Of a stretch of 64,000 nt of DNA, positions 48,619 through 48,704 are shown piece by piece. The stretch spans positions 128,001-192,000 of the IMG/VR virus record IMGVR_UViG_3300049144_000095; one strand, 5' to 3'. Source of the stretch: a virus. Its lineage: Duplodnaviria > Caudoviricetes. Under the pieces are notes generated by a model. The model did no database searches, was not told where the DNA came from, and was given only the letters and a program-made list of their open reading frames with translations. The position numbers were made by a program, and so were the translations under genes. Every line of letters begins with the position of its first letter. The first letter of the stretch is position 1.

Positions 48619-48704
48619 AGCCTCCGGCTGGACTCGAACCAGCGACCTCCCTTGCACCCTTGCGGGTCCCGGGTCGGGTGCTCTGCCAACTGAGCTACGG
48701 AGAC
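48619..48704 (-). ncRNA. tRNA-like RNA with normal acceptor, D and T arms but remodelled anticodon arm
   Basis: GTCTCCG/CGGAGGC; GCTC AGTTGGCA GAGC; GCTGG TTCGAGT CCAGC; 30-nt CCCGACCCGGGACCCGCAAGGGTGCAAGGG in place of anticodon arm. Confidence 0.75.

Follow-up and report, generated by a model that had tools for sequence, protein, structure and literature searches.

The stretch of DNA analysed here, referred to below as the window, comprises 64,000 nucleotides (nt), bases 128001-192000 of the IMG/VR virus record IMGVR_UViG_3300049144_000095. This record is a 251-kb virus of about 65% G+C that is rated complete by CheckV, indicating a jumbo phage. The element of interest is an 86-nt tRNA-like RNA gene on the minus strand of the window, running from 48704 to 48619, in which a tRNA body carries 30 nt (CCCGACCCGGGACCCGCAAGGGUGCAAGGG) in place of the 17-nt anticodon arm, as an original prediction made from the sequence alone had described. 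As judged by comparison with its relatives, this gene belongs to a family that is of the tRNA-Arg(CCG) type, with a module placed between tRNA positions 38 and 39, and its RNA probably does not decode.

Read along the minus strand, the gene begins with the 5' strand of the acceptor stem, GUCUCCG (48698-48704), which forms seven of seven pairs with the 3' strand CGGAGGC (48620-48626). A UA dinucleotide joins it to the D arm, GCUC-AGUUGGCA-GAGC (48680-48695), in which G18 and G19 are present and position 20 is a C; A26 follows. What remains of the proximal anticodon stem is CCC (48676-48678), paired with GGG (48649-48651), so that the stem is 3 bp long in the window and 4 bp in the relatives. 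Beyond it, the exposed 5' strand GA followed by CCCGGG (48668-48675) corresponds to the former anticodon loop, A32 C33 C34 C35 G36 G37 G38, and holds a self-complementary hexamer. The inner hairpin ACCC-GCAA-GGGU (48656-48667) and the 3' strand GCAA (48652-48655; GCAC in most relatives) follow, and in-silico deletion places the inserted module, consisting of the hairpin and GCA and then A (48652-48667), between positions 38 and 39. The gene is completed by the variable loop AGGUC (48644-48648), the T arm GCUGG-UUCGAGU-CCAGC (48627-48643), with five of five pairs formed, and the acceptor 3' strand, after which the discriminator U (48619) precedes CA; CCA is not encoded. The acceptor stem, D arm, variable loop, T arm and U-C-A end listed in the original prediction can thus all be read in the sequence.

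The Rfam tRNA model RF00005 matches the window RNA from end to end (model positions 1-71) at 46.2 bits (E 1e-6), above its cut-off of 29 bits, and treats the middle of the gene as a 24-nt insertion. A covariance model built for the family, R1, gives the window RNA 87.8 bits (E 1e-18) and ordinary tRNAs 54 bits or less. The gene also folds better than shuffled sequences (z = -2.1). The elbow nucleotides are intact, with G18 and G19 in the D arm and UUCGA in the T loop. A canonical anticodon arm, with a 5-bp stem and a closed 7-nt loop containing U33, is absent; the arm measures 30 nt, with a 3-bp proximal stem and C33. ARAGORN names the gene inconsistently, as Gly(ccc) when introns are disallowed and as Arg(ccg) with a 7-nt intron.

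A BLAST search with the 86 nt identified full-length, insert-bearing relatives in small (approximately 41 kb) Streptomyces phages, namely AbbeyMikolon, Nesbitt, Euratis, Vash, Sebastisaurus, Heather, RemusLoopin, Lilbooboo, Samora and phiC31, and searches with four of the members as queries all led back to this set of phages. Pattern scans of IMG/VR contributed four further sequences (L009, L010, L011 and L208). An exact-core scan of viral contigs found four sequences, and two looser scans for the tRNA frame yielded, for the most part, other odd tRNAs or sequences unrelated to the family. The resulting family contains 14 distinct sequences in six clusters at less than 90% identity, and the window copy is 69-84% identical to the other members. 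These lineages comprise the jumbo phage of the window, phiC31, Streptomyces phages of the Vash, Sebastisaurus and AbbeyMikolon types, and two contigs from IMG/VR. Instead of having a normal anticodon arm, which would have left the insert peculiar to the window, the relatives have the insert in common. When metagenome and genome collections were scanned for the frame with a free insert, no further member was found, only archaeal intron-containing tRNAs and unrelated inserts, and the family therefore looks confined to actinophages. The family is defined by a cloverleaf with a 4-bp proximal stem, an RA-YCCGGR strand, a capped hairpin and a GCAY strand, and the window RNA belongs to it on this definition.

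Annotation of the family has been inconsistent, with tRNA finders and annotators assigning Gly, Val, Arg, 'OTHER' or nothing. The AbbeyMikolon and Nesbitt members are recorded as 'tRNA-OTHER, Gly/Trp' and that of Lilbooboo as 'tRNA-Gly', and the phiC31 member, which lies between genes 13 and 14 in the early region, is unannotated. Such RNAs are therefore probably under-counted. In the accessible literature, nothing was located on this element in phiC31 or in other Streptomyces phages.

The proposed structure was examined after the 14 sequences had been realigned with model R1. Standard pairs occupy 98.2% of the cells, and 11 of the 24 pairs have changed on both sides; no shuffle attains these values, and sliding the pairing partners drops pairing to 26-52%. 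Six of the seven acceptor pairs show double-sided compensatory changes, two T-stem pairs covary, the T loop is nearly invariant, and the D stem is invariant in all 14 members. The proximal anticodon stem (columns 27-30:57-60) covaries among CG, UA, AU and GC, with seven double-changed cells (0 of 500 shuffles), and occurs as CCCC:GGGG, UCCC:GGGA, CCGC:GCGG and CCAC:GUGG. The acceptor, D and T arms and the 4-bp proximal stem are thereby shown to be maintained by compensatory evolution. The inner hairpin, whose presence in the window had been predicted, recurs in the 13 further sequences with compensatory changes of its own: columns 39-42:49-52 are paired in 95% of cells, CCC:GGG alternates with CGC:GCG, and the CG-to-GC swap is found in phiC31 and Lilbooboo. 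RNAalifold, unprompted by the proposed structure, returned the same fold with an additional invariant pair between G37 and C54. No insertion or deletion affects the module except in the window, where the proximal stem is shorter by one base pair through the matched loss of one base on each side.

Other folds were considered and set aside. The register preferred by RNAfold, in which the 3' strand pairs with the hexamer, shows no covariation and breaks in the phiC31/Lilbooboo/Samora clade, where the proximal stem compensates; the proximal stem is preferred because the rival register is without compensatory change. K-turn, loop E, bulge-helix-bulge (BHB) and bulge-helix-loop motifs are, by inspection, incompatible with the sequence or with the covariation.

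The most strongly conserved parts of the insert are not those that were singled out at first. The original prediction proposed that the scaffold serves to display a GNRA hairpin, but the cap is GCAA, GUAA, GAAA, GUUA or UUCG in different members and a 7-nt loop in AbbeyMikolon. Since the cap is interchangeable, the GNRA loop is not under selection and only a stable cap is needed. The flanking strands are near-invariant: A32, C34, G37, G53 and C54 are present in all 14 members and C35, G36 and A55 in 13 of them, and the same sequences show free variation in the acceptor stem and in the variable loop. The hexamer in columns 33-38 reads CCCGGG, UCCGGA or CCAUGG and is self-complementary in 42 of 42 cells, with two double-sided changes (CG to UA and CG to AU) and a duplex energy of -10 to -15 kcal/mol. 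UCCGGA is the usual tRNA-Arg(CCG) loop with G37 and A38, and the palindrome is therefore partly inherited.

The identity of the interrupted arm had escaped the original prediction. When columns 39-55 (a purine, the hairpin, a pyrimidine and GCA) are deleted in silico, 71-73 nt remain, and ARAGORN then reports tRNA-Arg(CCG) for 12 of the 14 members, the window RNA included; the AbbeyMikolon member becomes a tRNA-Met(CAU), and L208 is ambiguous. Because the deletion restores a tRNA-Arg(CCG) of canonical length, the 38/39 junction appears to be the point at which a module of 15-17 nt was inserted. The loop of the Sebastisaurus clade, A-U33-CCG-G37-A38, is that of the textbook. An ordinary 73-nt tRNA(CAU) with a D arm, variable loop and T arm almost those of the window RNA is present in Streptomyces phage Dagobah (L274:596-668), where it is unannotated and begins inside the final stretch of a coding sequence labelled 'hypothetical protein'.

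Features needed for decoding are unevenly preserved. The C35 and G/U36 of tRNA-Arg are present, with CCG in register in 13 of 14 members. The main determinant for the bacterial arginyl-tRNA synthetase is A20 in the D loop (PMC9976931). Position 20 is a C in the window and, in the family, A in eight members, U in four and C in two, and it differs even between the near-identical Vash and Euratis sequences. C33 replaces U33 in nine of the 14 members. If the module were removed, positions 31 and 39 would face each other as A.C, U.U or G.A and never as a Watson-Crick pair in any member, and the arm of the window RNA would be 15 nt long, or 2 nt short. The insert blocks a closed anticodon loop, and the RNA would therefore read no codons. 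The description of a non-decoding tRNA scaffold in the original prediction is upheld in that six lineages keep the insert on a compensated body that lacks a closed 7-nt loop.

On balance, the locus is probably a functional, non-decoding tRNA mimic, most likely acting as a decoy or competitor. In this scheme, the RNA would derive from an Arg(CCG)-type elongator tRNA of class I that acquired at the 38/39 position a 15-17-nt module made up of a purine, a 3-4-bp hairpin with any stable cap, a pyrimidine and GCA. It would be co-transcribed with its neighbours, within the tRNA cluster in the window and within the early operon in the phiC31-like phages. Excision by host RNase P and 3' tRNase, with addition of CCA by the host, would be expected from the intact elbow and acceptor and from the lack of an encoded CCA. 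The former anticodon bases, CCG and G37, would then be shown in an internal-loop strand beside GCA, where they may attract a host protein that recognises tRNA-Arg(CCG) by its anticodon loop, such as an anticodon nuclease of the colicin D kind. Pairing of the hexamer, either with itself or with the UCCGGA loop of host tRNA-Arg(CCG), may form part of the mechanism.

Colicin D cleaves tRNA-Arg between positions 38 and 39 (PMC9990079), and phages are known to use tRNAs against defences that cleave tRNA (PMC10264068). A more specific version of the decoy proposal, which can be advanced only tentatively and is rather unlikely in this exact form, holds that the RNA is an uncleavable mimic of tRNA-Arg(CCG) that keeps C34-G37 as the bases by which a host defence nuclease would recognise it, places a hairpin at the 38/39 scissile site and titrates the nuclease, with the CAU variant acting likewise against a nuclease directed at tRNA-Met. 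The 38/39 junction is also where VapC toxins cleave initiator tRNA-Met, which is suggestive with regard to the CAU variant of AbbeyMikolon.

Several points weigh against the interpretation as a decoy. The target is hypothetical, and the coincidence at 38/39 leans on a single enterobacterial toxin. The AbbeyMikolon member reads CAU, and one protein target therefore cannot serve all members. The strict conservation of CCG and G37 would also fit a tRNA that decodes after some processing. As to the hexamer, the palindrome is backed by only two or three independent events, and the change of G38 to A has an alternative explanation in pairing with column 52, a 38:52 pair being possible in the slid control.

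A working tRNA-Arg(CCG), in which an intron-like insert is either tolerated or cut out and religated by host enzymes, so that the RNA decodes CGG and perhaps serves as a nuclease-resistant replacement, would account for the canonical length recovered on deletion in 12 of 14 members, for the near-invariance of C34, C35, G36 and G37, and for the textbook loop of the Sebastisaurus clade; phage tRNAs with altered anticodon loops do replace cleaved host tRNAs (PMC10264068). This explanation is nevertheless unlikely for reasons that concern both the removal of the module and its product. A BHB motif comprises a 4-bp helix with a 3-nt bulge at either end, located at the exon-intron junctions, whereas the module offers a single 3-nt bulge (GCA) beside a 4-bp, tetraloop-capped helix; the central helix would need columns 49-52, which covariation has already assigned to columns 39-42, and the alternative BHB pairing 32-35:49-52 is contradicted by the covariation of 41:50. 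Bacteria are not known to have a tRNA splicing endonuclease. A self-splicing group I core (P1-P9) requires about 200 nt or more, far above the 15-17 nt of the insert, which also has no Rfam intron match. No RtcB, RNA ligase or CCA-adding enzyme was found in the window phage genome. The product itself would retain the 31:39 mismatch, C33 in nine of 14 members, a variable position 20 and, in the window, an arm of only 15 nt, and G53, C54 and A55 of the module are conserved, unlike a discarded spacer.

Of the remaining possibilities, one would have the hexamer act as an RNA-pairing device, by which the RNA dimerises through the opened loop in a kissing-type interaction or sequesters host tRNA-Arg(CCG) by means of UCCGGA. 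Its self-complementarity in every cell, the two double-sided changes, the purines on both sides, the favourable duplex energy of a strand left unpaired in the covariation-supported fold and the longer palindromes of a related subtype (described below) are consistent with this, but the few independent events and the partly inherited palindrome, the possible pairing of column 38 with column 52 and of G37 with C54, and the location of the hexamer in an internal loop, less favourable for kissing than a hairpin loop, make it quite improbable. A role solely as a processing signal, in which the tRNA shape recruits RNase P and 3' tRNase to cut a polycistronic transcript and the capped anticodon arm is irrelevant, has a precedent in tRNA-like punctuation of the mascRNA type. 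It is in keeping with the tight placement of the RNA in nine small phages, 7-8 nt past one open reading frame (ORF) and about 36 nt ahead of the next within the early operon, and with the lack of any promoter or terminator signal adjoining the window copy. Such a role leaves the invariant unpaired bases of the module, the kept hexamer and the retained CCG unexplained; the window and AbbeyMikolon copies, moreover, sit among ordinary tRNAs that already give such cuts, and a second capped tRNA body in AbbeyMikolon would do equally well yet is conserved nowhere else. It too is decidedly unlikely. A decaying tRNA pseudogene, which the original prediction had also allowed for, or a DNA-level palindromic site within one, could be suspected because tRNA detectors differ on identity, most phage annotators omitted the element and the hexamers are classic restriction-type DNA palindromes. 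The covariation and the invariant unpaired bases indicate selection instead: six lineages at 69-84% identity have kept all helices by compensatory change, the module is free of insertions and deletions save for the matched base-pair loss in the window, and the Lys-like capped body of AbbeyMikolon provides a true lineage-specific contrast, so that decay is very improbable.

That Lys-like body (L001:1133-1212) is a second 'tRNA-OTHER' with the same acceptor as the tRNA-Lys of the window and an anticodon loop fully replaced by CCCC-GUAA-GGGG plus UGAC; it is found only in AbbeyMikolon and Nesbitt. The related subtype was detected in phage tRNA clusters of IMG/VR (L155:431-511, L202:5664-5744 and L235:2304-2383) and scores 59-73 bits with model R1. 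These sequences have the same CCCC-UA-CCCGGG start and AC-GGGG end as the family but no inner hairpin, which is replaced by a 7-8-nt stretch resembling an anticodon loop (UUCUGAU, CUUGUAA), and they contain the 8-nt palindromes ACCCGGGU or CCCGCGGG. The opposite arrangement occurs on a soil metagenome contig (L264:547-636), where the GCGUG/CACGC stem of a tRNA body encloses ACAA, a CGCCC-UUCG-GGCG hairpin and, after it, a loop-like CCUUAAAG (UAA). A recurrent group of IMG/VR phage tRNAs, with about 20 sequences in the frame scan (e.g., L141, L142, L147, L176, L180, L184, L224 and L239), combines CUUAUAC as its anticodon loop (UAU) with a D arm of the class-I type and a variable arm that is long and forms a hairpin.

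The preferred interpretation, a non-decoding mimic of tRNA-Arg descent, can be set against several known systems. The window RNA resembles a canonical bacterial or phage tRNA-Arg(CCG) (RF00005) in its 7-bp acceptor, G18 and G19, 5-nt variable loop, UUCGA T loop, CCG in the anticodon position with G37 next to it, score above the Rfam cut-off and location in a phage tRNA cluster. It differs in that a 15-17-nt module at 38/39 opens the loop and the proximal stem is 3-4 bp, and in that most members have C33, A20 is not conserved and the ARAGORN name changes from phage to phage. Phage tRNAs that escape nucleases (PMC10264068), such as the T5 tRNA-Lys that counters PARIS (PMC11464382), are likewise phage-encoded, with an altered anticodon arm on a preserved body. 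The alterations in those tRNAs are point changes that leave decoding intact, whereas here a whole hairpin has been inserted and decoding is very unlikely, which would make the RNA a decoy and not a replacement. With colicin D-type tRNA-Arg nucleases, the likeness is one of position only, between the 38/39 cut site (PMC9990079) and the point at which the module is inserted.

The use of a tRNA shape for purposes other than decoding, reliance on the tRNA processing machinery and an anticodon arm that is changed or lacking are shared with the tRNA-Other of Bacillus cereus (PMC3399842), mascRNA/MEN-beta (RF01684), tmRNA and YrlA. In this group the D arm is incomplete, the RNA is circularly permuted or the tRNA-like part forms one section of a larger RNA, while the window RNA is a complete cloverleaf and has no match to the RF01684, tmRNA or Y RNA models even at E values of up to 10. 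Archaeal precursor tRNAs with BHB motifs, including those at non-canonical positions, and bacterial tRNA genes with group I introns are similar in that an insert lies in the anticodon arm, and deleting the module of the family brings back the length and anticodon of a standard tRNA, though with a mismatched 31:39. The family is unlike them in having a bacterial host, a phage genome without a splicing or ligation gene, conserved insert bases and no covariation-compatible BHB, and its insert is far smaller than a group I intron. The RNA is thus of the broad kind of tRNA-derived, non-decoding RNAs, but no described family matches it, and the conserved, defined insert at 38/39 sets it apart.

In the window, the minus-strand cluster runs in the order tRNA-Pro, a 108-amino acid (aa) ORF, the tRNA-like RNA gene, about 475 nt, tRNA-Lys, tRNA-Phe and tRNA-Asn. 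The neighbouring tRNA-Lys, tRNA-Phe and tRNA-Asn also do not encode CCA, and the 251-kb genome has a single copy of the tRNA-like RNA gene. No family could be assigned to the 108-aa ORF or to the neighbouring small ORF. In the phiC31-like phages the ORFs on either side of the RNA belong to PHROG 1106 and PHROG 27777, both of unknown function; they have no Pfam match and are not present in the window genome. No protein travels with the RNA, and its partner should therefore be a host factor.

Several other features of the window were noted. Between the tRNA-like RNA gene and a small hydrophobic ORF (about 48153-48362) there is a long, near-perfect hairpin (48430-48492, minus strand; z = -3.9), whose 5' arm (GCCUCCGUGGCUCAGUCGG) copies the 5' half of a tRNA acceptor and D arm and which is possibly a processing or termination structure. 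In the tRNA-Phe(GAA) at 47911-47984 (minus strand), A31 and C39 are mismatched, GG is missing from the D loop (AGACAGCCA) and the T loop is UGCGAAA, which suggests a re-wired elbow. At 47808-47871 (minus strand) lies a tRNA-like body in which the D and T arms are well formed but the anticodon arm is reduced to some 12 nt and pairing in the acceptor is poor; its scores are sub-threshold (mascRNA 23.7 bits, tRNA 21.7 bits; fold z = -1.0), and no relative was found among sequenced phages. At 46745-46864 (minus strand), the acceptor GGGAGGG/UCCUCCC, the loop ACGUAAU with its C33 and roughly 50 nt of variable region make up a Tyr(GUA)-like class II tRNA that is called neither by ARAGORN nor at the Rfam gathering score (model R1 21.7 bits; fold z = -2.0). 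The 85-nt 'tRNA-Glu(ctc)' called by ARAGORN at 56820-56904 (plus strand) has no Rfam match, a T stem of 4 bp and two mismatched pairs in the acceptor, and is probably a false positive. Beside the tRNA cluster, a 591-aa ORF (49695-51470, minus strand) has no tblastn match among 50,697 sequenced phages, and the jumbo phage therefore appears novel at the protein level.

The phage tRNAs known so far as counter-measures to tRNA-cleaving defences are all decoding-competent replacements. If the more specific, uncleavable-mimic version of the decoy proposal were correct, the RNA would be the first RNA decoy, as distinct from a replacement tRNA, directed against tRNA-targeting immunity. A member lies unannotated in phiC31, which has been studied genetically for decades and grows on a host that is easy to handle, and the question is therefore directly testable. 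With a tRNA body under selection in unrelated actinophages and its loop held open by a conserved insert, the family points to a tRNA shape that is used outside translation.
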